Shown here one piece after another: positions 7,851 through 58,520 of a stretch of DNA of 64,000 bases. A program made the translations under genes and the position numbers. The stretch comes from Candidatus Falkowbacteria bacterium (GTDB taxonomy: Bacteria; Patescibacteriota; Patescibacteriia; XYB2-FULL-38-15), in contig JACRNW010000001.1 in assembly GCA_016214745.1 (NCBI GenBank), positions 1,038 through 65,037 of the forward strand, in the 5' to 3' direction. Within the stretch, counting starts at the first letter, position 1, and each line of letters opens with the position of its first letter. The notes beneath the pieces were generated by a model. It saw nothing but the letters and a program-made list of their open reading frames with translations, was not told the DNA's origin and searched no databases.

Positions 7851-8456
7851 CTACGATTGACCGTTTTCCCTCCGCTCGCCGCGCAGACGCCGGAGAAGCC
7901 GCCAGGCAACCCAGTGGTAGATCGTGACCAAAGAGTCGAATGTCACACCGAGCGTGTCTACTCCTTCACGGGTCACTGTGTGAGGTTCCTTGCCCTCGCG
8001 GCAAGTCACCTTGAAGGTGACTTGGACATGGTGGCTGTGTTCGTAGTCAACCGCAAAAACCGAATAGCCGACAATCCGTACGCACCCGAGATGCTGTTCG
8101 ATCTCCGGCCAACGCTTGATGAGCGCTTTGCGTAAAGCGCGCTCCATAAGGTCAACCGATCCGAGGCGACCCTCAAAAGCGGCGCCATTCTTTACGCGTT
8201 GGCTCACCGCCTGCTCGTCGGCAATCTCAACCACCTGGCCGTCCAGGAGCGTGCTGATTTCAATGCGGAAACAGCTAGCCACCTTCCCGTCATCCACTCG
8301 GCGTTGTTTGTGAAAACCAAAACTGAGTACCTCAAATTGGGGCGCCTTGCCGGCGGCGATTGCTCCCGCAAGCTCTCTTTCGAGAGAATTTTTCCCCTTC
8401 CCTTTTACGGCCGGACCCGTATTCACTGCCACATCTATTCCCTCCTCCCTCCCCAT
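7851..8456 (-). CDS. hypothetical protein, GC-rich (~60% GC) gene of likely foreign origin
   Basis: 201-aa ORF with high GC3, set in 38% GC surroundings. A strong SD (GGGAGGGAGGG) precedes an in-frame GTG about 8 codons into the ORF, so the true start may be near 8432. No family was recognised. Confidence 0.5.
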   Translation of the reverse strand: MGREEGIDVAVNTGPAVKGKGKNSLERELAGAIAAGKAPQFEVLSFGFHKQRRVDDGKVASCFRIEISTLLDGQVVEIADEQAVSQRVKNGAAFEGRLGSVDLMERALRKALIKRWPEIEQHLGCVRIVGYSVFAVDYEHSHHVQVTFKVTCREGKEPHTVTREGVDTLGVTFDSLVTIYHWVAWRLLRRLRGERRENGQS

Positions 8457-8509
8457 TTAGAAAAACGGATCCGTCAATCCGTTTTTAATAATTTATCATA
8501 ACAAATAAA

Positions 8510-8548
8510 AAAAGCAAGTCCAAAATCAACCGGACCTGCTTTTTAAAA
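8510..8548 (-). terminator. rho-independent terminator downstream of 8551..8862 gene
   Basis: On the minus strand the sequence is GCAGGTCCggttgattttGGACTTGC followed by TTTTTTT. Confidence 0.5.
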
Positions 8549-8550
8549 AT

Positions 8551-8862
8551 TTATTTCATGTGCTTTTGAATGTCGCTCCATTTACTTTTTAATTCCGCCA
8601 TTACTTCCTGAATTTGCTTTTCCGCCATTTTTTTTCTTTTTCCGTATTCCACGACTGCTTTCTCCACTACCTCTTCATATTTTTCCTTACTCATCACTTT
8701 CATTTTTTCCACTTCCTTCAAAATCTTAGCGAAAAGATCAGACGACATTTTCTTTAATTCCGCGCGACGTTCCTCACCGGTTTTTTTGGTGGTGAGGAGA
8801 GCGGCGGCCGTGCCGATCAGGGCGCCGAGAAGTGCTCCCTTGAAAAATTCTTTTTTCCCCAT
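8551..8862 (-). CDS. YtxH-like small protein (N-terminal Gly-zipper TM + coiled coil)
   Basis: MGKKEFFKGALLGALIGTAAALL, then a K/E-rich helix. Composition is native AT-rich. Confidence 0.5.
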   Translation of the reverse strand: MGKKEFFKGALLGALIGTAAALLTTKKTGEERRAELKKMSSDLFAKILKEVEKMKVMSKEKYEEVVEKAVVEYGKRKKMAEKQIQEVMAELKSKWSDIQKHMK

Positions 8863-8991
8863 AAAATTTTAATTAATTATTATAAAATTTATTTAGAAAT
8901 CTCTTTTTATTATTTTACCACAAATTAATAAATAAAAAAATCCCGTACCCTGTCCGAGGACAAAATACGGGACGAACCGCCAAGATTCTCC

Positions 8992-9579
8992 TTATCCGAC
9001 GGCTGGCTGACTTCGCGCGAAGAGAATGCGCGCGTGGAAAACGACGCTCAAAACGGCAAAGACGAGTGCCACCCACAAGGCGATGTTCGCAACGTCGAGC
9101 GTCCAGCCGGCGCCAACGACAAGACCGATCACGGCCGTGCTCTGCAACCACATCTTGATCTTGCCGAAAGCATTGGCCTTGCCCGATTTGCCGAGCAGAG
9201 ATGCGAGCAACCGGCCAAGGGCAAGAATCACTTCAATGGAAGCCGTTACGATGATGAGCTCAAATGGGAAATGCCCCCGGCCGTTGGTCAGAAGAATCCC
9301 AACGACCATCACTTTGTCGGCACAGGGGTCAAGCCATTCGCCGAGCTTAGTCTGCTCACCCCGCCACCTGGCCAGAGCTCCGTCCAGCGCGTCCAAGAAC
9401 ACGGCAAAAGCGATAAACAGAATGCCCAGGAAATGGCTGCCGACCCTGAGCAAAACCGCCACGAACAGAGCAACGAGCATGCGAGCAAAAGAAAGGTGAT
9501 TGGGCTTGATCCAGAGCGGGGTTCGCTTCACGATCGGATTCAGCAACCAATCTCCCCAGCTGAGTTTTTTCTCCTCCAT
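8992..9579 (-). CDS. CDP-alcohol phosphatidyltransferase (PgsA-like), GC-rich
   Basis: FLDALDGALARWRGEQTKLGEWLDPCADK matches the D-G-x2-A-R...G-x3-D-x3-D signature, and the protein has multiple TM helices. The likely start is MEEKKLSWGDW at 9579, preceded by a strong SD (AAGGAGGGAG); the ORF track extends to 9681. The gene is about 60% GC. Confidence 0.75.
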   Translation of the reverse strand: MEEKKLSWGDWLLNPIVKRTPLWIKPNHLSFARMLVALFVAVLLRVGSHFLGILFIAFAVFLDALDGALARWRGEQTKLGEWLDPCADKVMVVGILLTNGRGHFPFELIIVTASIEVILALGRLLASLLGKSGKANAFGKIKMWLQSTAVIGLVVGAGWTLDVANIALWVALVFAVLSVVFHARILFARSQPAVG

Positions 9580-9707
9580 CACTCCCTCCTTGGCTCCGGA
9601 CACTGCGAAATTGTCCAGGCCTTCATTTGTCCTATCATAAATAAAAAAATTCTGCAAACAAAAACAGAGTGATTTTTCCACTCTGTTTTTAAAAATCTTC
9701 TAAGATT

Positions 9708-10802
9708 TTATTGTCGCGGCGTAAAAGAAACTCGAGTTGAGCCAGTGCCGCCGCCAAATGACGCCGAGATATCAACCAAAACTTTGTAACCGACTTCAGC
9801 ACTCGTTCCAATTTTGAAAGAAACCGCATAAACACCGCCGCCAGAATGAACAAGAGTGTAGGTGATGTTGCCCGAATTGTAATGGGCCACGGCTTTGACC
9901 GTCGCATTAGTTATCGGATTGCCCGCGCCGTCTTTTACTGTCGCGGTGATTGTCTCATTGCCCCTGACGTTTGGCGTCGGATTGCTGATTTGTCCCACGA
10001 CGCCAATAATTATTGCTGGCGGTGGCGGCGCGGTGTTGGTATTGGTATTTGTGTTTGTAGCCGTATTCGTGTTAGTTTCGGTATTTGTGTTCGCGTTAGT
10101 GTTCGCGCCTGCTTCCGCATTAGTGTTGACCGCCGCATTCACGTTCTCGTTAGCATTAGTTTCAATAATCGGCACATAAGTCACAGTTTCAGTAGTGCTG
10201 GCAAGATTGCCGGCCGGATCAGTCGCCGTCACGGTTAAATTATTTTCTCCGGACGTTAGCGGAATGTTCGCGCTCCAGGTACCGTCGGCGCCCACAGTGG
10301 CGGCAACGCCGTTCACGGTGACTATTGAACCTGGCGCCGCTTTGCCGCTCGCAATATAATTTTTATCATTTACAACTAAACCCGCGGCAGACTGCACTTC
10401 AAGCGTCGGCGCAGCTGTATCAAATTTTATGACAATTTCGCCTGAAGTGCGGCTCGATCTTCTAACCGCGTTAAGCGCCCGAGCCGTAAATTTATTTTCT
10501 CCGGCGACAAGCGAAACATTTTCAAAAATAAAATTTCCTTCCGCGTCCGCGCTTGCCATAGCCACCGCTTTTTTATCCTTATCAAAAATTACAACTACTG
10601 CGTCCGCCCTGGCTGTTCCCCTGAGCGTCACTTTTTCTTGATTAGTGACGGTAGGAAATCCGGTAAACTTTGGCGCCGGCAAATAAATCACTGCCAGCCA
10701 AATAATAAGGCCGACTGCTAACAAAAACAACGCTGCCGAAATGGCGCACCAAATCAGCCTCTCGCGCGTTAATTTTGTCTTTAAAACAAAAGGTAAATCC
10801 AT
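9708..10802 (-). CDS. membrane-anchored surface protein with bacterial Ig-like domains and a (TN)n low-complexity linker
   Basis: N-terminal TM helix. The body is T/A/G/V-rich beta-strand-like sequence. It contains NTNTETNTNTATNTNTNTNTAPPPP. Confidence 0.55.
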   Translation of the reverse strand: MDLPFVLKTKLTRERLIWCAISAALFLLAVGLIIWLAVIYLPAPKFTGFPTVTNQEKVTLRGTARADAVVVIFDKDKKAVAMASADAEGNFIFENVSLVAGENKFTARALNAVRRSSRTSGEIVIKFDTAAPTLEVQSAAGLVVNDKNYIASGKAAPGSIVTVNGVAATVGADGTWSANIPLTSGENNLTVTATDPAGNLASTTETVTYVPIIETNANENVNAAVNTNAEAGANTNANTNTETNTNTATNTNTNTNTAPPPPAIIIGVVGQISNPTPNVRGNETITATVKDGAGNPITNATVKAVAHYNSGNITYTLVHSGGGVYAVSFKIGTSAEVGYKVLVDISASFGGGTGSTRVSFTPRQ

Positions 10803-20666: not shown

Positions 20667-20778
20667 CTACAAATTACGAATTTTGATACAAATATACAAA
20701 TTCCTTCTGACGCGTTAATTCACCAAAAAATGTTCTTGGCCGTTATTTGTATATTTGTAAATGATTTGTAATTTGTAG
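20667..20778. repeat. MITE-like palindromic intergenic element, family 1 copy R1 (~112 bp: ~35-bp inverted arms + conserved ~45-bp core)
   Basis: Left arm CTACAAATTACGAATTTTGATACAAATATACAAAT. Right arm ATTTGTATATTTGTAAATGATTTGTAATTTGTAG. Core ...GACGCGTTAAT...AAATGTTCTT...GTT. About 80% identical to 55051..55160. Confidence 0.6.
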
Positions 20779-20788
20779 TAATATTTAT

Positions 20789-26459: not shown

Positions 26460-26525
26460 CTACGAATTACAAATTATTTACAAATGTACAAATTTGTATA
26501 TTTGTATTTGATTCGTAATTTGTAG
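26460..26525. repeat. palindromic element, family 1 short copy R3 (arms only, no core)
   Basis: CTACGAATTACAAATTATTTACAAATGTACAAAT directly abuts its inverted partner ATTTGTATATTTGTATTTGATTCGTAATTTGTAG. Confidence 0.55.
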
Positions 26526-26528
26526 TAA

Positions 26529-28799: not shown

Positions 28800-28900
28800 A
28801 AAACTCTTGCCAAAAATAAAATGCCTTGGTATTATTATATCAAATTAAGACTAAAACGGCTATCAACGACTTCCTCGTTCTTTTTTTAAAATTTCATTAT

Positions 28901-28973
28901 GACCCGGTAGCTCAGCTGGTAGAGCATCTGCCTTTTAAGCAGAGTGTCCTGGGTTCGAGCCCCAGCCGGGTCA
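28901..28973 (+). tRNA. tRNA-Lys (anticodon UUU)
   Basis: GACCCGG-TA-GCTC-AGCTGGTA-GAGC-A-TCTGC-CTTTTAA-GCAGA-GTGTC-CTGGG-TTCGAGC-CCCAG-CCGGGTC-A. Confidence 0.9.
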
Positions 28974-28988
28974 TTTTTTATTTGCTAA

Positions 28989-29120
28989 TTTTTGGCTGGG
29001 CTCGAACGGGAAGGGGTCGGGAAACGGGAGTTTCCCGATTTGCGGAAATATTAAAACCGCAGGGTTTTAAAGCGCAGTCCCGCCATGGCGGGACGAGCAG
29101 TGAGCGCCCCAGCCGGGTCA
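28989..29120 (+). ncRNA. tRNA-linked structured element (copy 2) ending in duplicate of tRNA-Lys 3' end
   Basis: TTTTTGGCTGGGCTCGAACGGGAAGGGG, hairpin CGGGAAACgggaGTTTCCCG, hairpin TGCGG...CCGCA (compensatory relative to copy 1), GCGCAGTCCCGCCATGGCGGGACGAGCAGTGAGC, then GCCCCAGCCGGGTCA plus TTTTTTATTT, which duplicates 28958..28983. Confidence 0.55.
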
Positions 29121-29141
29121 TTTTTTATTTCCCCATAATTT

Positions 29142-29176: not shown

Positions 29177-29205
29177 TTGACAAAATCGATGATTTAACCT
29201 AAGAT
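29177..29205 (+). promoter_or_regulatory. sigma70-type promoter for the GGDEF gene
   Basis: TTGACA (29177..29182), a 17-nt spacer, TAAGAT (29200..29205). The SD AAGGAGG lies 7 nt before ATG 29258. Confidence 0.5.
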
Positions 29206-29257
29206 TTGAGGTCGCATGGATAGTACTTTCCCAAGACCACAAGAAGGAGGTGGGGCT

Positions 29258-29938
29258 ATGGGTTGTGAAAATGATTTTGACCAGCTACGTGATCTTACCG
29301 CGCGGCAACTGTGGATGGCACTCGCGGCGGCCTACCAGGCGCTCGCGGCGGACGAAGCCCAGATCAGGGGGTTCGGTGCCGTAGTCGTAGAGGCCGATGC
29401 TCGAATCGAGGAACTCGAGAGCGAGGTCAAGCGTCTGCGACGGCTCTTGGGCATTGACTTCTTGACCGGAGTCCCAAATCACTACCACATCATGGGGCTT
29501 CTGGAAAGAGAAATCGATCGCTCTAGGCGTTCCGGCTCCACTTTCAGCCTACTCTTCCTGGACATCGACCGCTTCAAGAACGTGAACAGCAACTACGGAC
29601 ACGAGGTCGGCAGTGCTGTCCTCCACGAACTGGCCAAACGGCTCGAGGCAGCTCTGCGACTCTCCGACGCCTTGGGACGATACGGCGGAGAGGAATTCAT
29701 CTTCATCCTTCCCAATGCGCCGCGAAAGGGAGCGGAAATCGCCGCCGAACGACTTCGGAAACTCGTCGCCGCCGAACCCTTCAAGATCGGCGACAAGTCC
29801 GTGGCCGTGACAGTGAGTATCGGCGTTGCCGAGTTCCGACGGACGGATACGGCGTCAAGCCTGATCGAAGCGGCGGATATGGCCATGCTCCAAGCCAAGG
29901 ACTTGGGCCGTAACCGCGTCGTCTCGGCTGAGCGATAG
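29258..29938 (+). CDS. GGDEF-domain diguanylate cyclase with N-terminal coiled coil, GC-rich (~62% GC)
   Basis: RYGGEEF is the GG[DE]EF active site, with upstream DxLTG-like DFLTGVPNH and ...FLDIDRFKNVN. The likely start is ATG 29258 after a strong SD; the ORF track starts at 29216. Confidence 0.85.
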   Translation: MGCENDFDQLRDLTARQLWMALAAAYQALAADEAQIRGFGAVVVEADARIEELESEVKRLRRLLGIDFLTGVPNHYHIMGLLEREIDRSRRSGSTFSLLFLDIDRFKNVNSNYGHEVGSAVLHELAKRLEAALRLSDALGRYGGEEFIFILPNAPRKGAEIAAERLRKLVAAEPFKIGDKSVAVTVSIGVAEFRRTDTASSLIEAADMAMLQAKDLGRNRVVSAER

Positions 29939-29945
29939 AGAAGGA

Positions 29946-30000
29946 TCTCAAGGACAGAAAATCCCGCAACAAGGAGGTGCGGGACCGATTCTGTCCTTTT
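29946..30000. terminator. bidirectional hairpin terminator between convergent GGDEF and murG
   Basis: GGACAGAAAATCCCGCA...TGCGGGACCGATTCTGTCC followed by TTTTCTTTTTTT. Confidence 0.5.
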
Positions 30001-31122: not shown

Positions 31123-31714
31123 GGAGTTCACCCTTTAGGGTGTAAGTTCTAATCGCCCTCAACTGTAAAATCCACAATCGGATGTAACTCAAAAACCGAT
31201 TCTATCCACCCCAATCCTCTTTTTCCAATCCACTGCCCAGCGCTTGAAAATGGGTATTGAAAAGCCTCTGTTTGAGTTTTGCACAAACCGTGCTTTACTG
31301 GTTGATGATGAATATAATTAAAGTGCTTCCAAAAATCAACTTCATCGCGAATGCAATGATCCCAATAATTAAACCAAATTTTTCGTTTTTGTACGCGATC
31401 AATTTTATTTAATTGGAAAGCGCTTTTACCATTAATTGTTTGAATAAAGTCGGGTAAATCTTTTCCTCTGGCCATTTTAAAAAGCAGATGATAATGATTG
31501 GAAAGAATGCTCCAAGTATAAAAATTACTCTGAAATTTTCTCCCCGCCTCCCCAATTGTTTTATACAAAATTAATTTTTTATTTTGGCTGGAAAAAAATA
31601 GTTCCTGATTTACCGTTCTCGCCGTAATAAAATAAATTTGCTGGTCAACATACAAATGGGGCGGATAATGTGGTTTGAACATTAAAATATTCTACAGGCT
31701 AAAGCCTGAACTCC
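31123..31714 (-). mobile_element. REP-associated tyrosine transposase (RAYT/IS200-like Y1 transposase) unit flanked by inverted REP-like hairpins
   Basis: The Y1/HuH transposase gene (31149..31682) sits between GGAGTTCACCCTTTAGGGTGTAAGTTC (31123..31149) and its imperfect reverse complement TTCTACAGGCTAAAGCCTGAACTCC (31690..31714). The stems show compensatory changes (CACCC/GGGTG versus CAGGC/GCCTG). Confidence 0.65.
31149..31682 (-). CDS. Y1 (HuH) tyrosine transposase, IS200/RAYT family
   Basis: 177 aa. HYHLLF is the HuH motif, with a conserved Tyr in ...FNYIHHQPVKHGL. The size and motifs fit PF01797. Confidence 0.7.
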   Translation of the reverse strand: MFKPHYPPHLYVDQQIYFITARTVNQELFFSSQNKKLILYKTIGEAGRKFQSNFYTWSILSNHYHLLFKMARGKDLPDFIQTINGKSAFQLNKIDRVQKRKIWFNYWDHCIRDEVDFWKHFNYIHHQPVKHGLCKTQTEAFQYPFSSAGQWIGKRGLGWIESVFELHPIVDFTVEGD

Positions 31715-41723: not shown

Positions 41724-43340
41724 TTATTTAATAATTTTTACCACGCCGTGATTGGCGTCCACCTCTACTATATCGCCATCTTTTAAAACCTTTGTCGCGA
41801 TTTTGGTGCCGATGACACAGGGAATACGAAGTTCGCGAGCCACAATTGCCGCATGAGAAGTTACCCCACCCTGCTCCGTAACAATAGCTGCGGCTTTTTT
41901 CATGGCTGATACTAAATCTGGATTAGTGGCGATAGAAACTAAAATATCGCCCTTCCGCATCTTTTCCATGTCTTCGGGATTGATAACAATTCTCACCGCA
42001 CCCTTCGCTTTTCCTACACAACCACACTGACCTTTTATTTCGCTGACTTCTTCTGCCCCTTTTTCCCGAACTGATTCCGCTAACCTTTTTGCCTTCTCGC
42101 CCGTAAAGACCACGTCTCTCTCCTTTTCGGCGTAATAAACGCAAAGTTTTGTCCGCTTCTTAATTTCTTTTTTATCAAGTCTACTTTTCAAAAGAGCTGC
42201 CCCAACTTCCTGCGGCAGCATAAATTTTACTTGCATCAAACTCAAACCCAGTCTTCTTCCGATCTCCCGTAAAATCGCTTCCATTTGATAAATAGCAAAT
42301 ATCTGCGCATAACGGCGGTATATTTTTGTAATCATAAAATTGCCAAAAGCATCAAAAATTTTTCTCCAGCCGCCTTTGATTTTCAATTTTTTAATCAATG
42401 CATTTCTTTTTCGAACGCCCACTTTAAACTCCTGCTGCATTTCTTGATATTTCTTTTCCAAATCACCTGATACCACAAGCCTCACCAATTCTTTCAGATA
42501 ATGATCAAAACTGTAAATCCCCTGCTTTTCAGTAAAAAGATATCTCATGTAAAAATACTTAAGATAATGTTTTTCTAAAAGTTTATAAATTTCCGGACCA
42601 ATTCTTTCTTTGATTTTTCCCGCTTCTTGCTCAAACAGTTCTTCATATTTTTTTGAATGGGTTTTAAAACCGTACTTTGTTACCTCCCCCTCTTTAAACT
42701 TTTTAAATAATTCCAGAAATAATTTGAGCTGATTTTTGTCTTGTTGAACTTTTTGACCAATTTTCAAAAGTTCCTCTTGTTCAACTTGAATAAGAGATTT
42801 TTGGATTGGCTGAGTAAGAATGACTAGATGTTCATTTATTTTTTCTTCGGAAATTCCAGCGTCTCGCAGATGCTCTTTTAATCGATTAGTCAGATTATTG
42901 TGAAACATGTCAGCAGCAACCGGAATCCATCCCCAACAATAATAGTCAGTGTGAATTTGGTCATGCTTATTGTAAAATTTCCACAACTCTCGTTTAGACA
43001 ATTGCGATAAATTATCTTGTGGCAAAGTATTGGCGTAATTTCTTAACTTATCTGACCAGATTATAATCTCTTTGTTGACCCGCTCGGCGAACTTTGGATT
43101 TTTAATAAATTTTTGGACTATATTCTCACCAACCTCAAAGGAATCATTTTCCCCGTAATAAAACCAAAGATGATAACCGCGATAAATACAAATAATTTTT
43201 TTATAAGCACGACCAGTGAATCTCTTAAATTCATTAACAAAATTTGAAAGCCAGATCTGAGAAAATAAAAAATCGCAATTTGGAATCTCTTCCCCCAACA
43301 TCCACAAGTCTTTGTCATTTAAATATTTCAGCTTTTTCAT
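41724..43340 (-). CDS. PEP-utilising-enzyme mobile (phosphohistidine swivel) domain protein with ~380-aa helical N-terminal domain, paralog 1
   Basis: C-terminus [30 protein letters not shown]. Confidence 0.75.
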
Positions 43341-44839
43341 ATTTTTAATTGTTTCACAACTTTTATTACTCCTTTTGTAGCGTCGACTTCCACTAAATCT
43401 CCATCTTTTAAAACTTTAGTTGCGATTTTGGTGCCAATGACGCAAGGAATTCCCAACTCGCGGGAAATAATGGCGGCATGGGAAGTTATACCGCCCTCGT
43501 CCGTAACAATAGCCGCGGCTTTTTTCATCAAAGGCACATATTCCGGCCTCGTCATGCCGGCTACTAAAATTTCTCCTTTTTCAAGCTTAGCGCCTTTTGG
43601 ATTTAATACTACACGCACCCGCCCCCGAACTTTTCCTCCGGAAGCCGCTGAACCCTTCAATATATTATCTTTGATTTGAATATTTTGAGCAATGATCTTT
43701 TCGGCAAACTTTAAATATTTTTTTCCAGACAAAATTATTCTTTCTCCGTCGTCTTTGTTAATTGATATAAATAACTTTTGGCGCCGTTTTATTTCTTCTT
43801 TGTCATATTGACCATTGGATTTTAAAAATTCAATAAACTCCGGCGCAATCATAAAATGTAAATCAACAAAGGGGACGTTAAACTTTTTGGCTGCTAATTC
43901 CATAATTGTACCGACGGCGTAATTCATATATAAGCCGGTTTTCTTTCTAGCATCTTGCCAAAAACTGGCCACGGCAAACATTTCTAAAAATTGTGCGTCT
44001 TTTTTTAATATTAAATATTTTTTAATCAATTCCCGTTTTTTAGATTTAATATTTTGTTCGTAGTTTTCCAATTTTTCTATTTCTCCCTTGATCTCCCGCC
44101 GAGATTTACCCCTAGTAAGTTCTTGGGCACTTCGCCAAAATTCCCTTTCGCTCACATTTTTATGTTCATAATAACCATTCTCTATCCAAAAATATTTCTT
44201 TTGATGAGATTGAATTAATTGTTTTATTTCTCGAGAAGCCGATCCGTAAGATTTGATTAATTGATCTTTGGCTTTCAGCGCAATGCGCATCAAACCAAGA
44301 TTATTTTCCGCCGAGAAACTCAAACGAGGCTCTTTTAATAATTTAAACAAATCATCGCCGGAAATTTTATATTTATTCTTTATTCCATTTATGTCCTCTT
44401 CGCCAATCATTGATGGCGCTTCAGGTATTGTGGCTCGCCCAAATTCGTAATGAAATTTTTCGGTAATCAATCTATATGATTCCAACAATGGCAGAAAATT
44501 GTTTCTTGCTCTTTGCTGGACAAGGTCAATAAATTCTTTCGCTTCTTTCTGCCAAATGTCAAAATGGTCTTGCACTTTTTTAATATTTTTCTTAAACCAT
44601 TTATAATTCTTAGCCAATTCCGCCTTGTCAAGCACCCAATGAGCTTTCCTGCCGCCATCAAAAATCACACTAAATAAAAATGTATTCATTGAAAACCCAA
44701 GCGTGTCTTTGCTACCGGCACACCAGGCCTCCTCCGCGAGATCATCAAAATGCGGACGCAAAACCGGACCATAAATAGATTTATCCTTTATTGCCTTCAA
44801 TTTTTCTTCCAATATTTGTAATTTTTCCCGGTCATCCAT
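43337..44839 (-). CDS. phosphohistidine swivel domain protein, paralog 2
   Basis: [30 protein letters not shown], plus the shared N-domain motifs ([12 protein letters not shown]; ...[10 protein letters not shown]). Confidence 0.75.
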
Positions 44840-45118
44840 ATATTTATTTTTTGTTCATGTTTCTTTTTCAGTCTCCTTGTCCAATCTAATCGCGTCGCAA
44901 TAATGCGCAGACACCGCACCCATTTGACAAAATTTTCAAAATAGATTATACTATATTGTTTGGTAAAGGTGAAAAATTGTCTGATTCTAGACAATTTTTC
45001 CCATACTAAATTGCACTTTGATAGTGGGCAAAAATTGTTTGGAGACGCTCTATTTATCTCGGTTGAGGTAACGAGAGCGTCTTCAAACAACCGCCCCGAG
45101 GGGGCAAGGAGGAGATCA

Positions 45119-45727
45119 ATGCCCGCAACGATCGTCGTGGTTCGCCATCCCGAGAAGGACGGAGACAAGATCACCCCGCACGGCGCAGAGCAGGCCTTTG
45201 CGGCGGCGCTGGCGCTCGGCGAACGGTTCAAGAACTTCGAAGGGTTCGACCGGCTCATCCACTCCGGCGCGCACCGCGCCTGGCAAGCGCTCCGCGTCAT
45301 GGCCGCGGCCCTGGGTCTGAAACTCCCGGACGAAGAGCGCTCCTTCTTGAACTTCACGGCCACACTCACGCAGACGCTCGGCAGCTCCGACGCGTTCTAC
45401 GCCGAAGTGGCCAAGATGAAGGCGGCGGAAGGAACGGACCGGCTGACGCTCGCCATGGCGCTCCGCCACAGCGAGTTCGCTCGCCAAGGCCGCCAGATCA
45501 TGATCAATGGTCTCCTCGGTCTTGCCTGTGACATGGCGATGAGGGGCCAGGCGACGGCACTCACCGTTTCCCATTCGCCCTGGCTCGAACTGGCGTCCTT
45601 CGACACCGAGAACACGCCCTACGGCATCGGCGAAAGCGATGCCGTGATCTACGTCGTGGCGGGCGACGAAATCCTCGTCGGGAGCGAACTCGTCCGAGCC
45701 CCGCTCCCCGGCAAGCCGCTTTTCTAG
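45119..45727 (+). CDS. histidine phosphatase superfamily protein (SixA/PGAM-like), GC-rich (~64%)
   Basis: MPATIVVVRHPEKDGDKITPHG (RH-type catalytic motif) and a later TVSHSPW. A strong SD CAAGGAGGAG precedes ATG 45119. The ORF track's longer frame from 44960 is AT-rich leader. Confidence 0.55.
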   Translation: MPATIVVVRHPEKDGDKITPHGAEQAFAAALALGERFKNFEGFDRLIHSGAHRAWQALRVMAAALGLKLPDEERSFLNFTATLTQTLGSSDAFYAEVAKMKAAEGTDRLTLAMALRHSEFARQGRQIMINGLLGLACDMAMRGQATALTVSHSPWLELASFDTENTPYGIGESDAVIYVVAGDEILVGSELVRAPLPGKPLF

Positions 45728-45757
45728 CCTACCTCACCTTTCCCACCGAAGTGCATC

Positions 45758-45796
45758 TCCCACGCCCGGTCTCCTGACTGGGCGTTCTTTTTTTAT
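45758..45796 (+). terminator. rho-independent terminator
   Basis: CACGCCCGGtctcctgaCTGGGCGTTCTTTTTTTATTT. Confidence 0.5.
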
Positions 45797-46051
45797 TTAC
45801 CCTGTTAAATAAGATTTGAGCCGATTCCTTAAAAATAACTTGCCGAGATAGGTCTTTAAATACTTTTCTCTATGGGTGGCATCTTGTTGATTCAAACAAG
45901 CCTCATAATATATTAAAACTAATGGCCCTCTGTCTTTAGTAGATTCAACTTTCCTTTTTTGATGAAGCTCAAATCTTGATTTTAAATCTTTGGTATAACC
46001 TGTGTAGAATTTTTTATCCTTTAAGGACATCAAAACATATACGTAATGCAT
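45797..46051 (-). CDS. GIY-YIG nuclease superfamily small protein
   Basis: 84 aa. HYVYVLMSLKDKKFYTGYTKDLKSRFELHQ is the GIY-(10-11)-YIG module. Confidence 0.7.
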   Translation of the reverse strand: MHYVYVLMSLKDKKFYTGYTKDLKSRFELHQKRKVESTKDRGPLVLIYYEACLNQQDATHREKYLKTYLGKLFLRNRLKSYLTG

Positions 46052-46061
46052 AGATTTAAAA

Positions 46062-47576
46062 TCATTTAACGGGGTGAATTTTTTTAACTACTCCTTTTGT
46101 CGCGTATACTTCAACTAAATCTCCATCCTTCAAAACCTTCGTCGCGATTTTTGTTCCGATGACGCAAGGTTTTTTCATTTCTCGGGCGACAATGGCCGCG
46201 TGGCACATAATGCCGCCTTCGTCAGTGACAATAGCCGCAGCTTTGCGAATGGCGGGCATTAAGTTTGGGCTAGTGGCGGCGGAAACCAAAATATCTTTTT
46301 CATTCATTTTTTTTATTTCTTCGGGAGTATTTATCAACTTCACCTTTCCCCTTGCCTTACCCTTAAAGGCGACTGCCCCAGTAATTTCCTTCACCGCTTT
46401 TATCTCTTTCTCTTTCCCGGCATTCTCGTGAAAAAAATCTTGCGCCTGTTTACCGGTCAGACAAAGTTTTCTTCCGCCCTTTCTCCCGTAAACAACTAAT
46501 TTAATTCGTTCGTTAATAACGCCAGAATTAATTTTCCCCCTAAGCAATGCCTCTTCCATTTCTTCCGGCAACATCATCCTGACTTGTTTCAAACTTAGAC
46601 GTAAACGTTTTGCAATTTCTTTTAGTAAAAATTCTGCGTGATAGTATGACCAGGTTTGTAATTCGCGGCGATAAGGTTTGAAAAAGACCAAATCCCTGGC
46701 TAACTCAATGATATTCCGCTCGTAATCGTTGGCTTTAATTTGTTTTAATATTTTCTTTTGCTGTGATCTAATATCTGATTTACTCTTTTTGTGTTCTGCT
46801 ATTTCCTTGGAGGGATTTATTTCCCGACGAATAAAATCTTTGATTATATCAAGAAAATAAATATGATCTGCCGCCGGTCCCTCGTAAACGTAATGCACCC
46901 AAGCGTATCTTTGGGTATGATTATCCACCAACCGCCAAACTTTTTTATTATTCTCCCTAATATATTTTACTAATTCTTGTGAATCTAAAACTTTAAATTT
47001 CTTTTCCAAATTTTTATATTTTTTAATTTGAATCAAAACTTTCAAGAGATCCAACTCCTGCTGTTTATTAAAGGTTTCACGCAAGGGCGTAGTCAGTTCT
47101 CCAAAATATTTTTCCGCTTTTTTATTTTTAAGAATTCTATTTAATTCATCCGATAAAAAAGTCGTGTTTTGATAATCCAAGAGGGGAGAAATTAAACCAT
47201 ACGCATACACTTCTTGATTTGATAACACATAATGCTGATAATAATTGTTCAAAACTCTATTACTCTTTCCTTTTAAATTACTTTTAAAAATTTTCGTAAA
47301 AGATGCCTGTTCCAAACCAAGTTTTTCCATTTGCGAAAAAATATTTCTCAAAAAATTTTGATTTTTCTTAATTAGTTTTACAATTGCAAAATGTGCCGCG
47401 CCCCAATTACTCGGCAGATGATAATACTCAATCGCGTTATTCTCAATTTTGAAAAAAAGGTCCCCCGACTTCCCTATTATCTTTTTTATATTTTTGCTGA
47501 ACGCTTCTACCATCGTGAATATGGGAAATAGAGAAACAACATATTCATTGGCTATCTTTTGCCATTTTTCTTTCAT
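46062..47576 (-). CDS. phosphohistidine swivel domain protein, paralog 3
   Basis: [30 protein letters not shown], plus the shared N-domain motif QRYAWVHYVYEGP. Confidence 0.75.
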   Translation of the reverse strand: MKEKWQKIANEYVVSLFPIFTMVEAFSKNIKKIIGKSGDLFFKIENNAIEYYHLPSNWGAAHFAIVKLIKKNQNFLRNIFSQMEKLGLEQASFTKIFKSNLKGKSNRVLNNYYQHYVLSNQEVYAYGLISPLLDYQNTTFLSDELNRILKNKKAEKYFGELTTPLRETFNKQQELDLLKVLIQIKKYKNLEKKFKVLDSQELVKYIRENNKKVWRLVDNHTQRYAWVHYVYEGPAADHIYFLDIIKDFIRREINPSKEIAEHKKSKSDIRSQQKKILKQIKANDYERNIIELARDLVFFKPYRRELQTWSYYHAEFLLKEIAKRLRLSLKQVRMMLPEEMEEALLRGKINSGVINERIKLVVYGRKGGRKLCLTGKQAQDFFHENAGKEKEIKAVKEITGAVAFKGKARGKVKLINTPEEIKKMNEKDILVSAATSPNLMPAIRKAAAIVTDEGGIMCHAAIVAREMKKPCVIGTKIATKVLKDGDLVEVYATKGVVKKIHPVK

Positions 47577-47591
47577 ATTTTTACTATTAAT

Positions 47592-49127
47592 TTACTTAAT
47601 TACTTTTACCACTCCCTTTGTCGCGTCTACTTCCACCAAATCTCCGTCTTTTAAAATTTTACTAGCATTTTTTGTACCAATAATACATGGCTTATTCATC
47701 TCGCGCGCGACGATTGCCGCATGAGAAGTAATGCCGCCGATATCTGTCACGAAAGCCGCGGCTAATTTCATGGCTGGCAAAAGCTGAGGAATGGTTTGAA
47801 CTGCCACTAGAATATCATCTTTTTTTATTTTCTTCATCTCGTACGGCTCGTTGATAATTTTCACCACTCCCCTAACCTTGCCGGCGCAGGCAATATTACC
47901 TTTAATAACACCTGTTTTGACTACCCGCTCGATCTGGAATTTTTCTCTGATAATTTTTTCGGCTTTTTCCCCGGTAAAAATTCTTAAATCGTTAAGATCC
48001 TTAACGTAATTTACGCAAAAATTATATCTTTGTCTCAACATGCTAACCCTGGGAATTTTTCCGCCCCTTAGCATTCTAATGAACTCGAATCTGGTTAAAT
48101 TTTGTAAATCCTTGTAATCTTTTCCTGAACTCCGGGCAAATCTTTTTAAGGATAAGGTCAAAAGGTAAAAAGTGAAAAATAGTAATTCTGAACGAATCAT
48201 CTTTGCTCCGGCAAATTCTCGGGCAGTCTCAAAATAATGCCTTTCACCCTCATCCAAATTAAGCTCTTTGAAATACTGCTCTTGCAATTTAATCAAAGGT
48301 CGCAAGTCAACTGATTCTTTTAAATTTCCTAATTCTTTTTTATCTTCTAAAATCACCTCTATTTTTTCTATTAATTTTTTCAGATCCATTTCTGGGCCAA
48401 TGTGACCGTAGTCTATCCATCTAAACTGATAAACCAAATCATTCAATCCCGAGAACAAGGCGGGGTAATTCCTTTTCAATAATGAAAATAACCTTGGGGT
48501 CGGGCTTTCCAAAAAAATATTTTTTATTTTTAATCTTTCTATTTCCTGACAAATATCAAATAATTTCTTTTTAAAAATAAAACTTTTTGTTTTTAACGAT
48601 GTCTTACCTAAAACGCCCACATAACTCCCAAGGGATCTTTTCAATTTATATTGCTCAATCTTTTTATTAACAATTTTTTCCAAAGCGTTGGAAAGCCCGT
48701 AGTGACTTAAATCGGCCATCACTGCTCCAAACCCCACGCTGCAAATTTTAAAAAATGTTTCAATTGCCTCTTCCCATTTATCGGCTATCTTTTTGAAATT
48801 GGGATTTTCATTTTCCAACAAATCAAAGATTTCATAATATTTTTTATAAAGATCAACCGCAATCTCTTCGGTTTTGATCAATATCTTTTTCCCATAATTT
48901 TTTTCACTATGAATCTTCTTGGCAATTTTTTCTCCCAAAACCCGCAAAATATCTGGATTGCAAAACCATTCTTCCGTGCCTCCTTTAAAGAGGACATAAT
49001 TATCTCTCATCCGGGGCAATCCCAAATATTCCTCTATTAATTTATGAGAAAATGCTTCTTGGTTAATGGTAATATTAAGAAAAACGGTATTATTTTCTTT
49101 GTGGGTTGAAACGTATTTCTTTTCCAT
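47592..49127 (-). CDS. phosphohistidine swivel domain protein, paralog 4
   Basis: [30 protein letters not shown], plus the N-domain motif QFRWIDYGHIGP. Confidence 0.75.
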   Translation of the reverse strand: MEKKYVSTHKENNTVFLNITINQEAFSHKLIEEYLGLPRMRDNYVLFKGGTEEWFCNPDILRVLGEKIAKKIHSEKNYGKKILIKTEEIAVDLYKKYYEIFDLLENENPNFKKIADKWEEAIETFFKICSVGFGAVMADLSHYGLSNALEKIVNKKIEQYKLKRSLGSYVGVLGKTSLKTKSFIFKKKLFDICQEIERLKIKNIFLESPTPRLFSLLKRNYPALFSGLNDLVYQFRWIDYGHIGPEMDLKKLIEKIEVILEDKKELGNLKESVDLRPLIKLQEQYFKELNLDEGERHYFETAREFAGAKMIRSELLFFTFYLLTLSLKRFARSSGKDYKDLQNLTRFEFIRMLRGGKIPRVSMLRQRYNFCVNYVKDLNDLRIFTGEKAEKIIREKFQIERVVKTGVIKGNIACAGKVRGVVKIINEPYEMKKIKKDDILVAVQTIPQLLPAMKLAAAFVTDIGGITSHAAIVAREMNKPCIIGTKNASKILKDGDLVEVDATKGVVKVIK

Positions 49128-49136
49128 AAAATATTC

Positions 49137-50675
49137 TTAAATTTTTTTCACAATCCCCCTTGTCGCATCAACCTCCACTAAATCTCCATCCCTCAAAACT
49201 TTCGTAGCAATTTTCGTGCCGACGACACAGGGAATTTTTAATTCCCGAGAGACAATCGCCGCATGGCACGTCAAACCGCCAACGTTCGTAACAATAGCCG
49301 AAGCAAGTTTCATGGCCGGAACAAGAGCCGGATAAGTTGTTTCGCTCAACATCACATCTCCCTTTTTCATTTTTTTCAAATCATCTACTGTCTCAATTAT
49401 TGACACTCGCCCCTTCGCCCTTCCTGGCGAAGCGCAAATCCCAAATAATTTTTCTACTTTTTTAACTTTCTGTTCAACAAATGTAGATCTGTCCAGAAAT
49501 TCCTGCGCCGCCTTACCGATATAAACCACCGGCCGATGAACGCTATCGGTATAAATCAGACTAAAATTATATCTCTCATTTAATTTGTTGGCATCATACT
49601 TATCTTTTAATAATGCGTCTTTCACCTCCCAATTACAGAAAAATCTTACCTGCCTTAAACTTAAACCAAGTCTTCGTCCAATTTCTTTGGCTATTTTATC
49701 CAAAACATAGGCGCCATAATACATACAATCTTTGCGCCAACTCTTCAACCAAACAATATCTCTTGCGATATCAAAAAGTTTTTTCTCTTTCTTGCTAAAA
49801 TTTAATTGTTTAAAAATTTTTACCCTTTTTTTCTTTATCTCCGCAAATTTATTCTTACCCTCTTCTATCAATTCCTCAATATTATTTTGTTTCAGAAGTC
49901 CTCGCCAAATTTCCAAAAAATATTCTAATTCAAGAACTGGCCCTTCGTAGTTATAGTGTAACCAAAGATATTTTTGATAATGCTTTTTTATCTTCTGTTG
50001 TAAAGAGGGGCTAATCTTGTTCAGATTTTTTTTGATCTCATCAATATTATTTTTCAAAAATAAATTTTTTGTTTTCTGATCTTTTTTCAACAACTTAACT
50101 AACTCTAATGATTCTTTTGATTCAATCTCAATAAAACTGGATTTTTCGGGGGTGGTAAGAACACTAAATGTCTCTGATAATTTTTGATCAGATTTAACTT
50201 TCTTTTTTAATAAATCTAAAAGATAATTACTAAAAAGTTGGCGATCAGCTTCCAGGAGCCACGTGGTTATTTGTCCAGGAAGATGAGACCAATATTGGCG
50301 GTCAATCAATTGATCAAAAACTCCCGCCAATTGCTTGCCTGATAGTGCCGAAAAATCTTTATTTTCTAAACTTTTTGCAAAAGAAAAATAATTCTTGGTA
50401 TATTTTACCAATTCTGAATTTCTTTTTTCTGTCCATTCGGGATATTTAACAGTTTTATTGAGCAAAAAATTTATACCCTTAGTAAAATCATCTCTTAAAT
50501 AACAAAGTGTAAGCGTGCCTTCATTTACAATAAATAAAACATGCTTGAAGTGTGGGCCGCCGCCTTTTTTCTCTATGTAAGTACCGTACTCTTCAAGAAA
50601 CGGCACAAGCATAAGGTAGTTGCACTTTGGGATTTTTTCAATTTTGAACCATCTAAATTTCTTTATTTCTTCCAT
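49137..50675 (-). CDS. phosphohistidine swivel domain protein, paralog 5
   Basis: ASAIVTNVGGLTCHAAIVSRELKIPCVVGT, plus N-domain motifs QKYLWLHYNYEGP and [13 protein letters not shown]. Confidence 0.75.
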   Translation of the reverse strand: MEEIKKFRWFKIEKIPKCNYLMLVPFLEEYGTYIEKKGGGPHFKHVLFIVNEGTLTLCYLRDDFTKGINFLLNKTVKYPEWTEKRNSELVKYTKNYFSFAKSLENKDFSALSGKQLAGVFDQLIDRQYWSHLPGQITTWLLEADRQLFSNYLLDLLKKKVKSDQKLSETFSVLTTPEKSSFIEIESKESLELVKLLKKDQKTKNLFLKNNIDEIKKNLNKISPSLQQKIKKHYQKYLWLHYNYEGPVLELEYFLEIWRGLLKQNNIEELIEEGKNKFAEIKKKRVKIFKQLNFSKKEKKLFDIARDIVWLKSWRKDCMYYGAYVLDKIAKEIGRRLGLSLRQVRFFCNWEVKDALLKDKYDANKLNERYNFSLIYTDSVHRPVVYIGKAAQEFLDRSTFVEQKVKKVEKLFGICASPGRAKGRVSIIETVDDLKKMKKGDVMLSETTYPALVPAMKLASAIVTNVGGLTCHAAIVSRELKIPCVVGTKIATKVLRDGDLVEVDATRGIVKKI

Positions 50676-55050: not shown

Positions 55051-55160
55051 CTACAAATTACAAATTTAGTACAAATATACAAATCCTTGCCAACACGTTA
55101 ATCTAATAGAAATGTTCTTCACTGTTATTTGTATATTTGTAAATGATTTGTAATTTGTAG
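55051..55160. repeat. MITE-like palindromic intergenic element, family 1 copy R2
   Basis: CTACAAATTACAAATTTAGTACAAATATACAAAT...CACGTTAATCTAATAGAAATGTTCTTCACTGTT...ATTTGTATATTTGTAAATGATTTGTAATTTGTAG. It fills the whole intergenic gap. Confidence 0.6.
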
Positions 55161-55163
55161 TAT

Positions 55164-57082: not shown

Positions 57083-57211
57083 ATATTAAAAATTAATCTC
57101 TTTTGCTCCTTAATCCTAATAAAATACGTGTTTTTTGTCAATTTAAAAAAACACCGCTTCGGCAATGTTTGGTTGCCAAAACGGTGTGTCACCTCCTTCT
57201 CCTTGTCGCGA

Positions 57212-57430
57212 TCAGGCCGCGGCGGGCTTGCGCGCCTTCGCCGCCTTGACCATGGCGCGAAGCTCCTCGCTGCAGAGATCGTGCCAACGCGCGATGAAAT
57301 TGTCCACCTTCTCCTGCGGACAACAGCCGCCCGCTTCAGCAAGATGGATGAGCCGGACAACCTGAACCTTCTCGTGCCGAATCCTGGCCAGCTCACTGCG
57401 CCTCTTTCTGGGCTTGTGCCTTCTCGCCAT
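57212..57430 (-). CDS. small basic hypothetical protein, GC-rich
   Basis: 72 aa, MARRHKPRKRRSELARIRHEK..., high GC3. Confidence 0.35.
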   Translation of the reverse strand: MARRHKPRKRRSELARIRHEKVQVVRLIHLAEAGGCCPQEKVDNFIARWHDLCSEELRAMVKAAKARKPAAA

Positions 57431-57451
57431 AACGCGCCTCCTGCAGCCGAA

Positions 57452-58040
57452 CTACAGCCCGGCCTTGGCCAGAGCCGCGAGCGACCGACCGTCGGTGGAC
57501 TGCCTCCGGAACTCGTCCGGGGTCATGCCCTCCGCATCCGGGAAGTCGGCGTTCACGAAGGTAGACGGCGATCACGCCCGCAATGCGCTGAGGATTCGAC
57601 TCGAAGAAGTTCGAATCGTAGAAGTTGCCGACGAGCTTGCCCTTGTCGGCCAATTCGCCCTTGGAGATACTGGACGGCCTGAGCTCCAAAACCTCGCCGT
57701 TCAGGCCCTTGGTCCTTCGCACCCGCACCCGCGGCGCGCCGTATCTGTTCATCTCGATCACGACGTGGCCCACGACGCGCGGACTGCCGTCCTCGGGCGG
57801 CGGGACATTCGGCTCTTCGTAGAGCGCGATCTGTCCCCAACCGCCGCGATCCACGTAGCGGGCGTCGTGGAACTTGCCGTCACCTCGACCACTTCGACCC
57901 GTCGCCGGGTCGAAGCACCAAAGCTCGGCGGCCTTGCCTCCGCCGATCTTGGCGCCGCGCACGTCATCGGGTTCGAGACAGACGACGACATTCTCGCCCA
58001 GACGCCTTTGCGCCTCTTCCAACGTGATGATCTCCGGCAT
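57452..58040 (-). pseudogene. GC-rich hypothetical gene with apparent frameshift near 57545..57575
   Basis: A strong SD (AAGGAAGGAGAGGAG) precedes ATG 58040 (MPEIITLEEAQRRL...). A high-GC3 frame runs to ~57560, where GC3 signal switches to another frame that ends ...TFVNADFPDAEGMTPDEFRRQSTDGRSLAALAKAGL* at 57452. The tail of the track ORF (57393..) is an Arg/Gly-rich off-frame readthrough. Confidence 0.45.
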
Positions 58041-58165
58041 CTCTCCTCTCCTTCCTTGAAGCCCCCTTGGCTTCTTGTTGATATTGATAAGATTAAAGTA
58101 AAAAATTAAAAATGTCAAGAATCAAAAAGCGGCCTTGCGGCCGCTTGCTTTTTATTTAATATTTT

Positions 58166-58354
58166 TTATTTTTCTTTCTCTTTTGGATGCAAAAGATTAT
58201 GTAATTTTCTTAATGCTTGCGTTCTCTGTTCTGGTGTACCGCGTTCTGCCAACTTTTGTAATTCGGCAATCCGCCGTTGTTTCTCCGCCAATTCTGCCTC
58301 AGTCCGCTTTTTTTCTTCAAGCGCCGCCGCAAATTGTGATTCTTGTTCTCCCAT
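58166..58354 (-). CDS. small coiled-coil hypothetical protein, GC-rich
   Basis: 62 aa, E/K/R/Q-rich. Confidence 0.35.
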   Translation of the reverse strand: MGEQESQFAAALEEKKRTEAELAEKQRRIAELQKLAERGTPEQRTQALRKLHNLLHPKEKEK

Positions 58355-58392: not shown

Positions 58393-58520
58393 CCCCTCCC
58401 TCGACGGGAGGGGATTAAGGGGAGGGTGGCAAAGCTAATATTTTCACCCTCACCCCTGCCCGCAACGCCAGCGCTAGCGTGGCAGGCGGGCCAACCCTCT
58501 TCCGTCAAGGGAGAGGGGGC
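58393..58520. other. block of four consecutive GC-rich hairpins including a G-quadruplex-type motif
   Basis: CCCCTCCCtcgacGGGAGGGG, then GGGGAGGGTG...CACCCTCACCCC, then GCCCGC...GCGGGC (with inner AGCGCTAGCGT), then CCCTCTtccgtcaaGGGAGAGGG. The plus strand carries GGGAGGGGATTAAGGGGAGGGTGG (G3-4 x4). Confidence 0.45.

Follow-up and report, generated by a model that had tools for sequence, protein, structure and literature searches.

Isolated GC-rich, Shine-Dalgarno-led genes of a Patescibacteria genome occupy expression slots common to relatives and may be maintained in place

In a 64,000-nucleotide stretch of a Candidatus Falkowbacteria genome (contig JACRNW010000001.1, positions 1,038 to 65,037; hereafter the window, to which all coordinates refer), a few isolated genes are far richer in GC than their surroundings and are led by strong Shine-Dalgarno (SD) sequences, which raises the question of whether they were imported or whether something keeps them so. 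An earlier note on this DNA read them as piecemeal acquisitions from high-GC donors. We instead propose that they are accessory genes in fixed expression slots, which recombine and whose GC-richness and SD are maintained in place, and not fresh imports; we give this reading about an even chance.

GC-rich units and their initiation signals

The units, labelled A to E, are five transcription units with six open reading frames (ORFs), since E comprises E1 and E2. Their coding sequences and SDs are listed here, where GC3 is the GC content at third codon positions and L numbers denote fetched loci.

A, 7851..8432, minus strand: 193 amino acids, GTG start, GC 0.57, GC3 0.63
SD of A, 8440..8454, minus strand: GGGGAGGGAGGAGGG, conserved in L084-L086 (alignment)
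B, 8992..9579, minus strand: predicted CDP-alcohol phosphatidyltransferase, 195 amino acids, GC 0.57, GC3 0.70
SD of B, 9582..9591, minus strand: AAGGAGGGAG, with AGGAGGGAGT invariant in four genomes (alignment)
C, 29258..29938, plus strand: coiled-coil N-terminus and GGDEF domain, 226 amino acids, GC 0.59, GC3 0.70
SD of C, 29243..29253, plus strand: GAAGGAGGTGG, with AAGGAGGTGG shared with L001-L003
D, 45119..45727, plus strand: putative SixA-like histidine phosphatase, 202 amino acids, motifs VRHPE.. and ..SHSP, GC 0.66, GC3 0.84
SD of D, 45106..45114, plus strand: AAGGAGGAG
E1, 57453..58040, minus strand: member of a small family, GC 0.65, GC3 0.76
SD of E1, 58043..58057, minus strand: AAGGAAGGAGAGGAG
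E2, 57212..57430, minus strand: basic protein of 72 amino acids, GC 0.63, GC3 0.77
SD of E2, 57437-57443, minus strand: CAGGAGG

The GC content of the window is 42.2%, so that the backbone lies at about 42% and not at the 38% given before. Against 59 native genes with a mean GC of 0.416 (standard deviation 0.042, maximum 0.49) and a mean GC3 of 0.411 (maximum 0.54), the six cassette ORFs reach GC 0.57-0.66 (z=3.6-5.7) and GC3 0.63-0.84 (z=4.0-7.7). A GGAGG lies within 20 nucleotides 5' of the start in five of the six cassette ORFs and in no native gene (0 of 59; Fisher p=7e-7), the exception being E1 with its AAGGAAGGAGAGGAG, and native start codons are preceded by A/T-rich strings such as AAATTTT. 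The contrast between strong cassette SDs and weak native ones is thus real and the pattern as a whole highly non-random. GC is raised at all three codon positions of the cassettes and their amino-acid composition is shifted as well. Within the GC-rich patches the automated gene caller chose wrong frames and starts; its list of outliers undercounts SDs and is of qualitative use only. Two gene models needed correction: A is a GC-rich gene, as claimed, with its start most likely at the GTG at 8432 rather than the ATG at 8456, and of three hypothetical genes placed in 57212-58354 two are E1 and E2, while the third (58166-58354) is AT-rich, lacks an SD and falls outside the set.

A sequence scan placed promoter-like and terminator-like sites around the units, in keeping with the view that they are separate single- or two-gene transcription units and not one island. 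A repeat search found no recombination site common to the five slots and no repeat shared among them.

The Pfam searches agreed with the annotation of B and C. Unit B matched CDP-OH_P_transf (PF01066; E-value 6.5e-26, 92 bits against a cut-off of 22) and its translation has the Dx2DGx2ARx8Gx3Dx3D motif (DALDGALARWRGEQTKLGEWLDPCAD; DALDGALAR..G..LD..AD), so that domain and motif together identify it as a putative CDP-alcohol phosphatidyltransferase. Unit C matched GGDEF (PF00990; E-value 3.2e-44, 151 bits) and carries a GGEEF active site and an RxxD (RLSD) I-site motif (RLSDALGRYGGEEF); having the domain, the GG[DE]EF signature and RxxD, it is a predicted diguanylate cyclase. For A there was no Pfam match. 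Its AlphaFold model (predicted local distance difference test, pLDDT, 85) has a beta-beta-beta-alpha x2 topology, and the best Foldseek match in the PDB was the regulatory domain of Mycobacterium tuberculosis LeuA (3fig/1sr9; probability 1.0, E-value 2e-5, template modelling (TM) score 0.41). Since A resembles this domain (cf. PF08502) in predicted structure, at a TM score of 0.41, it is probably a small ligand-binding protein.

Slots and payloads in relatives

Relatives of the A/B region were found by scanning GTDB species representatives with the neighbouring GT2 gene. Five relatives have this gene at 84-87% identity (L084-L087 and L097) and a sixth, L175, was added. A stands at the same site in all six and B in all except L097, with GC 0.49-0.58, GC3 0.53-0.70 and SDs of the GGGAGGGAGGAGG type; the next relative, L088 (GT2 71% identity), has neither. 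Among the carriers the rate of synonymous substitution (dS) is about 0.8-2.1 for the backbone and at least 1.2 for the cassettes, so that synonymous sites have turned over, yet A and B retain a GC3 of 0.53-0.70. Identities of A and B (0.44-0.61 among carriers) do not follow those of GT2: between L084 and L085 they are 0.93 for GT2, 0.52 for A and 0.46 for B. Family A counts 23 members in 5.8 billion proteins, all of 174-219 amino acids, and those that can be placed all come from the clade of the window.

Many of the GTDB records, L087, L089, L091, L094-L100 and others, are metagenome-assembled genomes (binchicken) titled 'uncultured Gammaproteobacteria'. Because they are syntenic with Patescibacteria genomes, these titles appear to be mislabelled.

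Other features of the A/B region are as follows.

Leader hairpin and U-run of A, 8461..8486, minus strand: ACGGAT..ATCCGT, conserved
YtxH gene between A and B, 8551..8862, minus strand: native, AT-rich, GC 0.42, Pfam YtxH E-value 1.3e-10
Terminator of B, 8940..8973, minus strand: 15-pair stem followed by a T-run

The YtxH match confirms the AT-rich gene reported between A and B. In L087 the leader hairpin of A reads GCGGA..TCCGC, with both arms changed and the pairing kept; it is either a 5' hairpin or an attenuator. In the window, hairpins directly 5' of the SD were also seen for B, D and E1, and conservation was found in A only. The hairpin of B is an insertion specific to the window, and a general 5' hairpin was dropped as a shared feature. 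An Ig-domain surface protein (9708-10802) has short tandem repeats at 10030-10160 that encode Thr/Asn runs, and it gave no tblastn match in the relatives.

The C slot is bordered by a tRNA gene and has its own signals.

tRNA-Lys(UUU), 28900..28974, plus strand: bordering the slot
Promoter of C, 29177..29205, plus strand: TTGACA-17-TAAGAT, conserved in L001-L003
Nested terminator of C, 29952..29996, plus strand: conserved AAGGAGG in the inner loop

Three short metagenomic contigs, L001-L003, carry the closest homologues of C (47-56% identity), again flanked by GT4/tRNA-Lys and by murG as in the window. There C has GC 0.58-0.60 and GC3 0.67-0.70 against 0.40-0.46 for its neighbours (murG 0.44-0.45); its best non-syntenic matches are generic GGDEF proteins at 40-50% identity. 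Between the window and L002 the rate of nonsynonymous substitution (dN) is 0.02-0.06 and dS 0.31-0.37 in the flanking genes, against dN 0.46 and dS of about 2 in the GGDEF gene. For L002 and L003 the order is reversed, the GGDEF gene having a dS of 0.76, lower than the 1.25 of murG. Between L001 and L002 identity is 97-100% in the tRNA gene and the downstream flank, but drops to 40-75% in promoter and coding sequence. The alleles are mosaic, with blocks of differing affinity along the gene, and the divergence spans the whole gene and its promoter.

Several observations concern the surroundings of this slot. A perfect 25-nucleotide direct repeat (28959-28983 and 29106-29130), made of the 3' end of tRNA-Lys and a T-run, encloses a GC-rich, hairpin-rich insert of about 122 bp directly 5' of the slot, which looks like the footprint of an integration or a miniature element. 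In L001 (2150-2290), a near-identical strain, another insert, of about 130 bp and with a 12-nucleotide duplication (ATGACCCGGTAG), stands at the 5' end of the same tRNA-Lys. Small GC-rich elements seem to target this tRNA gene repeatedly. Between murG and ftsW lies an IS200-like gene with a Y1 transposase fold (31149-31682), 92% identical in L002 and replaced in position by a NUDIX gene in L003; it looks domesticated or at least stably resident. Perfect SD-like sequences (ACAAGGAGG) also occur just past the stop codons in the C slot (29965-29975) and the E slot (57189-57205), in or beside terminator hairpins; they are conserved in relatives, and no usable start follows them.

At the E slot the ends are conserved.

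Upstream terminator before the E slot, 58127-58146, minus strand: from the scan
-35 box (TTGACA), 58113..58118, minus strand: TTGACATTT, conserved in L005 and L008
Conserved 3' end of the slot, 57151..57221, minus strand: last codons with stop, ACAAGGAGAAGGAGG, terminator stem

Orthologues of E1 and E2 occur in L005 at 60-63% identity (E2 62%), between the same FdtA-like and rmlD genes. Compared with the intact L005 orthologue, E1 has a frameshift near 57545 (57540-57550), and the conserved C-terminus ...STDGRSLAALAKAGL continues in another frame; E1 is thus either a pseudogene or carries a sequencing error. Its family has 46 representatives in 1.84 billion proteins. In L008 the slot holds non-homologous GC-rich genes between ends shared with the window and L005 (upstream terminator and -35 box on one side; last codons, ACAAG..CAAGGAGG and terminator stem on the other), and in L010 a gene with an NDP-hexose 2,3-dehydratase domain (GC 0.65, GC3 0.85, SD GGCAAGGAGGAAGAG). 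Payload turnover at this slot is real, and so is the repeated acquisition of some payloads. Nearby, between the FdtA-like gene and the small AT-rich ORF, a GC-rich intergenic stretch (58400-58530) has hairpins (CCCCTCCC..GGGAGGGG and others) and no counterpart in L005.

Slot neighbours take part in envelope glycosylation (GT2, GT4, RmlB/RmlD, FdtA and MurG). Taken together, the alignments show slots and payload families to be common to relatives, with payloads that keep an SD and a GC excess of 13-29 points over the backbone at every level of divergence sampled. The payloads are mosaic, evolve much more rapidly than the genes around them and give trees at odds with that of the backbone. The same comparisons show them as swapped between near-identical strains through recombination inside the conserved slot ends or beside them.

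Unit D, its PEP-utiliser neighbours and further features

Unit D lies among phosphoenolpyruvate (PEP)-utiliser genes.

Promoter 5' of D, 44924..44952, plus strand: TTGACA-17-TATACT, 11/12 positions match
Terminator of D, 45762..45785, plus strand: from the scan
Five AT-rich PEP-utiliser (swivel-domain) paralogues around D, 41724..50675, minus strand: 214-nucleotide repeat common to all five

The translation of D has the histidine-phosphatase motifs VRHPE and SHSP, and sources label some family members SixA or PhoE; its Pfam match to His_Phos_1 is weak, at 18.1 bits below the gathering cut-off of 21.7. The family has 13 members in 5.8 billion proteins. PF00391 was matched in two of the five PEP-utiliser paralogues, whose GC of 0.34-0.37 makes them AT-richer than the rest of the window. 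The paralogues stand in tandem, are about 500 amino acids each and have a C-terminal swivel domain; the whole block is absent from L005. Similar arrays recur across Patescibacteria, often with a split PPDK_N gene and a D phosphatase.

Wherever its context was examined, D or its homologue stands in divergent orientation among arrays of PEP-utiliser paralogues, and a PPDK_N gene is often present. These contexts are the window and eight further backbones, namely L164, L166, L168, L169/L170, L171/L172, L173, L174 and probably L028. In each, D is 13-29 GC points above flanks whose own GC ranges over 0.30-0.46.

D in the window: GC 0.66, GC3 0.84, flank GC3 0.35
D in L168: GC 0.65, GC3 0.86, flank GC3 0.35
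D in L166: GC 0.64, GC3 0.79, flank GC3 0.47
D in L164: GC 0.64, GC3 0.86, flank GC3 0.48
D in L174: GC 0.71, GC3 0.98, flank GC3 0.46
D in L169: GC 0.49, GC3 0.54, flank GC3 0.26
D in L171: GC 0.49, GC3 0.51, flank GC3 0.28
D in L173: GC 0.46, GC3 0.44, flank GC3 0.24

The GC3 of D tracks that of its flanks (r=0.85, n=8), and by our calculation from these values cassette GC3 exceeds backbone GC3 by about 1-4 on the logit scale. The neighbours of D match the composition of each backbone; D does not. SD-like sequences precede D in L164, L166, L168, L169, L171 and L173, and in L174 there is only AGGAG. Unit D is the strongest case among the units. Protein identity to the D of the window runs from 36% to 84%. 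In L168 D is 84% identical and the surrounding PEP-utiliser genes 30-65%, which argues that D is a conserved functional partner of the arrays; a putative phosphohistidine phosphatase beside phospho-histidine swivel proteins would make biochemical sense.

The D gene of L174 (275-925) has PEP-utiliser neighbours with GC3 0.43-0.50 and a leader of about 230 nucleotides after a TTGACA-17-TATACT promoter. A conserved riboswitch-like leader was considered and rejected, as leaders align between close relatives only, and a structured-RNA search around D and its L174 homologue gave only microRNA-like matches at chance level. Between D and the next PEP-utiliser gene lies a stand-alone GIY-YIG nuclease gene of 84 amino acids (45797-46051, GC 0.31); it is missing at that spot in L168, and the L164 array has two LAGLIDADG genes.

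Further isolated GC-rich genes of other AT-rich Patescibacteria, with GC3 0.74-0.87, are L092 5337-6014, L092 16660-17256, L090 19484-20413, L084 18084-18338 and L175 18585-18842. Such genes include a NUDIX-like gene and a conserved gene of 84-85 amino acids near GT4 in relatives of the window, in which the equivalent of the latter would fall before position 1. A 53-nucleotide intergenic TTTGTA-rich repeat occurs three times in the window (20728-20780, 26475-26527 and 55110-55162), two copies being 94% identical; it may be a regulatory element.

Maintenance in place, import and known systems

We propose that each slot would act as an insulated unit made of a sigma-70-like promoter, a near-perfect SD, a payload of 70-230 codons and its own terminator, and that GC-richness and SD would be maintained properties of the genes, not remnants of a recent import. 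The likeliest cause would be a fixation bias favouring GC and tied to unusually frequent recombination, that is, GC-biased gene conversion (gBGC); selection may also favour mRNAs that are GC-rich, structured and long-lived, and the maintaining force could be either or both. For bacteria, gBGC has been hypothesized from recombination-associated GC enrichment (PMC4450053), and selection on GC content has also been described (PMC2936529). The SD may then be a necessity: native genes initiate on A/U-rich, unstructured leaders lacking an SD, which a GC-rich message could not offer. The cassette messages are predicted to fold at about -0.43 kcal/mol per nucleotide versus -0.27 for a native control, and, folding more tightly, plausibly need an SD for ribosome recruitment. 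The payloads resemble accessory genes for envelope and signalling that are subject to diversifying selection: a putative cyclic di-GMP cyclase, a phosphohistidine-phosphatase-like enzyme, a lipid head-group transferase, a ligand-binding domain and sugar-nucleotide-type enzymes. More broadly, there may be a class of Patescibacteria genes under a gene-specific GC-driving force, which would be strong enough to hold GC3 at 0.6-0.98 in genomes of 30-46% GC across deep divergence and would be coupled to a change from SD-less to SD-dependent initiation, a generalization that we advance tentatively.

Evidence of recombination was found at the GC-rich loci in the form of mosaic alleles, discordance of flank and cassette, and tree incongruence. 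Polarised third-position changes in the lineage of the window are balanced, at 19:18 (strong-to-weak against weak-to-strong) for A and 10:13 for B. By a rough two-state estimate of our own, about 30-45% of an initial GC3 excess would survive since the A/B carriers split. The presence of D across backbones, its GC3 of 0.98 in L174 and this calculation for A and B led us to judge in-place maintenance, on indirect evidence, the likelier course compared with pure decay.

Other points weigh against maintenance. Strong-to-weak changes are in excess for C (13-17:5-9) and in L086 (22:8 and 33:8), which is what amelioration predicts, though these counts are underpowered and parsimony with a saturated GC-rich outgroup is biased in the same direction. 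The ancestral GC3 that A and B would need to stand at 0.65 today, at least about 0.96, is extreme and not impossible. The eight points of the D correlation are not phylogenetically independent, and some members of the E1 family (P0158, P0162) have an AT-type amino-acid composition, so GC-richness is not universal there. Folding z-scores of -2.7 and -3.0, against -1.5 for the native control (20 shuffles each), are weak as evidence. The homologue searches reach relatives that share five-residue words, and may have missed distant donors; B and C belong to ubiquitous families, so that their origin is not traceable.

The main rival, and a serious one, is an ancient import with incomplete amelioration, in which each family reached an ancestor from an unsampled GC-rich, SD-using donor, retained the SD of that donor, is still moving towards the composition of the backbone and was later exchanged among relatives only. 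In the framework of Lawrence and Ochman, compositionally atypical acquired genes ameliorate over time, and the cassettes share with such genes a GC raised at every codon position, a ribosome-binding site that looks foreign, proteins that evolve faster and a location in variable regions or beside tRNA genes. The shifted amino-acid composition, the GC3 gradient from A and B (0.63-0.70) to D (0.84) and the L010 payload (0.85), the strong-to-weak excess in several lineages and the real payload turnover at the E slot also fit, as does the dehydratase domain of the L010 payload, whose family is typical of actinobacterial deoxysugar pathways. However, the cassettes differ in that their odd composition is shared by orthologues with saturated synonymous sites, as in the A/B carriers, where GC3 has been retained. 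For D it is found across nine backbones, while the PEP-utiliser partners match each of them, and no donor lineage is detectable. No high-GC donor was detected for A or D in 5.8 billion proteins or for E1 in 1.84 billion, every context examined for families A and D being Patescibacteria-like, and to account for the GC3 of 0.98 in L174 the donor would have to be extreme, although the family was seen in no contexts but those like the candidate phyla radiation (CPR). We consider ancient import less likely than maintenance in place.

Another reading has GC-rich Patescibacteria as the donors, with payloads circulating inside the phylum. Backbones of 0.55-0.63 GC exist among the fetched loci, and published surveys place the source of most horizontal gene transfer (HGT) into Patescibacteria inside the phylum (PMC12455944). 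Against this, SD matches of at least 5 nucleotides precede only 6-17% of genes in Patescibacteria backbones of every GC class sampled, even at 55-70% GC. In GC-rich backbones they precede 17% of genes, and matches of at least 6 nucleotides precede 10%; GC-rich CPR donors would therefore not supply the SD. Nor is the backbone GC-rich in any of the nine contexts of D that were examined, and this origin seems improbable.

The interpretation of the earlier note, in which this genome took up the genes recently and piecemeal from several donors of high GC, has in its favour the strong contrast in composition and SD, separate units with their own promoters and terminators, and the tRNA-Lys with its 25-nucleotide direct repeat adjoining C. 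The GIY-YIG gene beside D may be a further trace of mobility. The atypical composition expected of recent HGT is present, but all five units stand at the same sites in relatives, where they are likewise GC-rich and SD-led, the exceptions being B, missing in L097, and the E payload, different in L008 and L010. Nor do the closest homologues lie in a distant taxon of matching composition (23 proteins for A, 13 for D): the best homologues of A and D all belong to the same CPR lineage, a result that the note itself had named as telling against its interpretation, and the closest homologues of B, C and E are found there too. 'Piecemeal', not one island and not a chimera, stands, whereas acquisition from high-GC donors is not supported and fails for A and D on the note's own terms; we regard recent import as very improbable. 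An artefact is suggested by the compositional jump alone and has a negligible chance, whether as a chimera of assembly or binning, which the earlier note too had called unlikely, or as non-coding RNA of high GC mistaken for ORFs. The same junctions and architecture recur in independent ENA, Logan, JGI and NCBI assemblies; the cassettes show the coding pattern GC1>GC2<GC3, Pfam domains and intact catalytic motifs; and Rfam at gathering score gives four tRNAs only in the window, so that a structured-RNA explanation was rejected.

How maintained cassettes in recombining slots would relate to known systems can be set out briefly. As in bacterial gBGC, it is the GC-rich genes that clearly show recombination. 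Bacterial genes that recombine usually differ only modestly in GC3 from those that do not, whereas here the gap is 0.2-0.5, affects single genes only and goes together with another initiation signal. Hypervariable loci exchanged by flanking homology include capsule and O-antigen loci, restriction-modification specificity loci and defence islands; the slots share with hypervariable cassette loci flanks that are conserved, alleles that diverged long ago, payloads at one site that are not homologous, and glycosylation neighbours, but are single small genes, GC-rich and SD-led, with their own conserved promoter and terminator. They also differ from defence islands, as there were no hits to known defence families: PADLOC gave none for ten cassette proteins, and membership in a defence system was rejected. 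A phage or mobile-element origin was rejected likewise, no relatives of A, D or E1 being found in IMG/VR. Like integron gene cassettes the payloads are small, mostly single-gene and exchangeable, with conserved ends, but the slots lie scattered and every one of them has a promoter to itself. No integrase, transposase, attI, attC-type or shared repeat is associated with any slot, as would mark an integron; a search of the whole window dedicated to integrases was not made. Nor does the window hold a repeat copy of any cassette elsewhere, as a diversity-generating retroelement would, and cassette divergence runs through entire genes together with their promoters. The searchable literature yielded no description of conserved GC-rich, SD-led genes in CPR.

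Atypical GC together with a foreign-looking SD is the textbook signature of recent HGT, yet here it is inherited and conserved across species, for one family (D) even across unrelated backbones, and composition-based HGT callers would therefore mislabel such genes in CPR genomes. The analysis also connects a putative SixA-like phosphatase with the PEP-utiliser paralogue arrays found, so far unexplained, in Patescibacteria. Should their high GC be actively kept up, the slot genes would provide a natural system tractable enough to tell gBGC and selection on GC apart, a long-standing dispute, and would help to explain how mostly SD-less organisms use SDs for a special set of genes. A gene class of this kind, if it exists, would in effect amount to a second regime of expression, or else to the clearest case yet in bacteria of biased gene conversion confined to particular loci.

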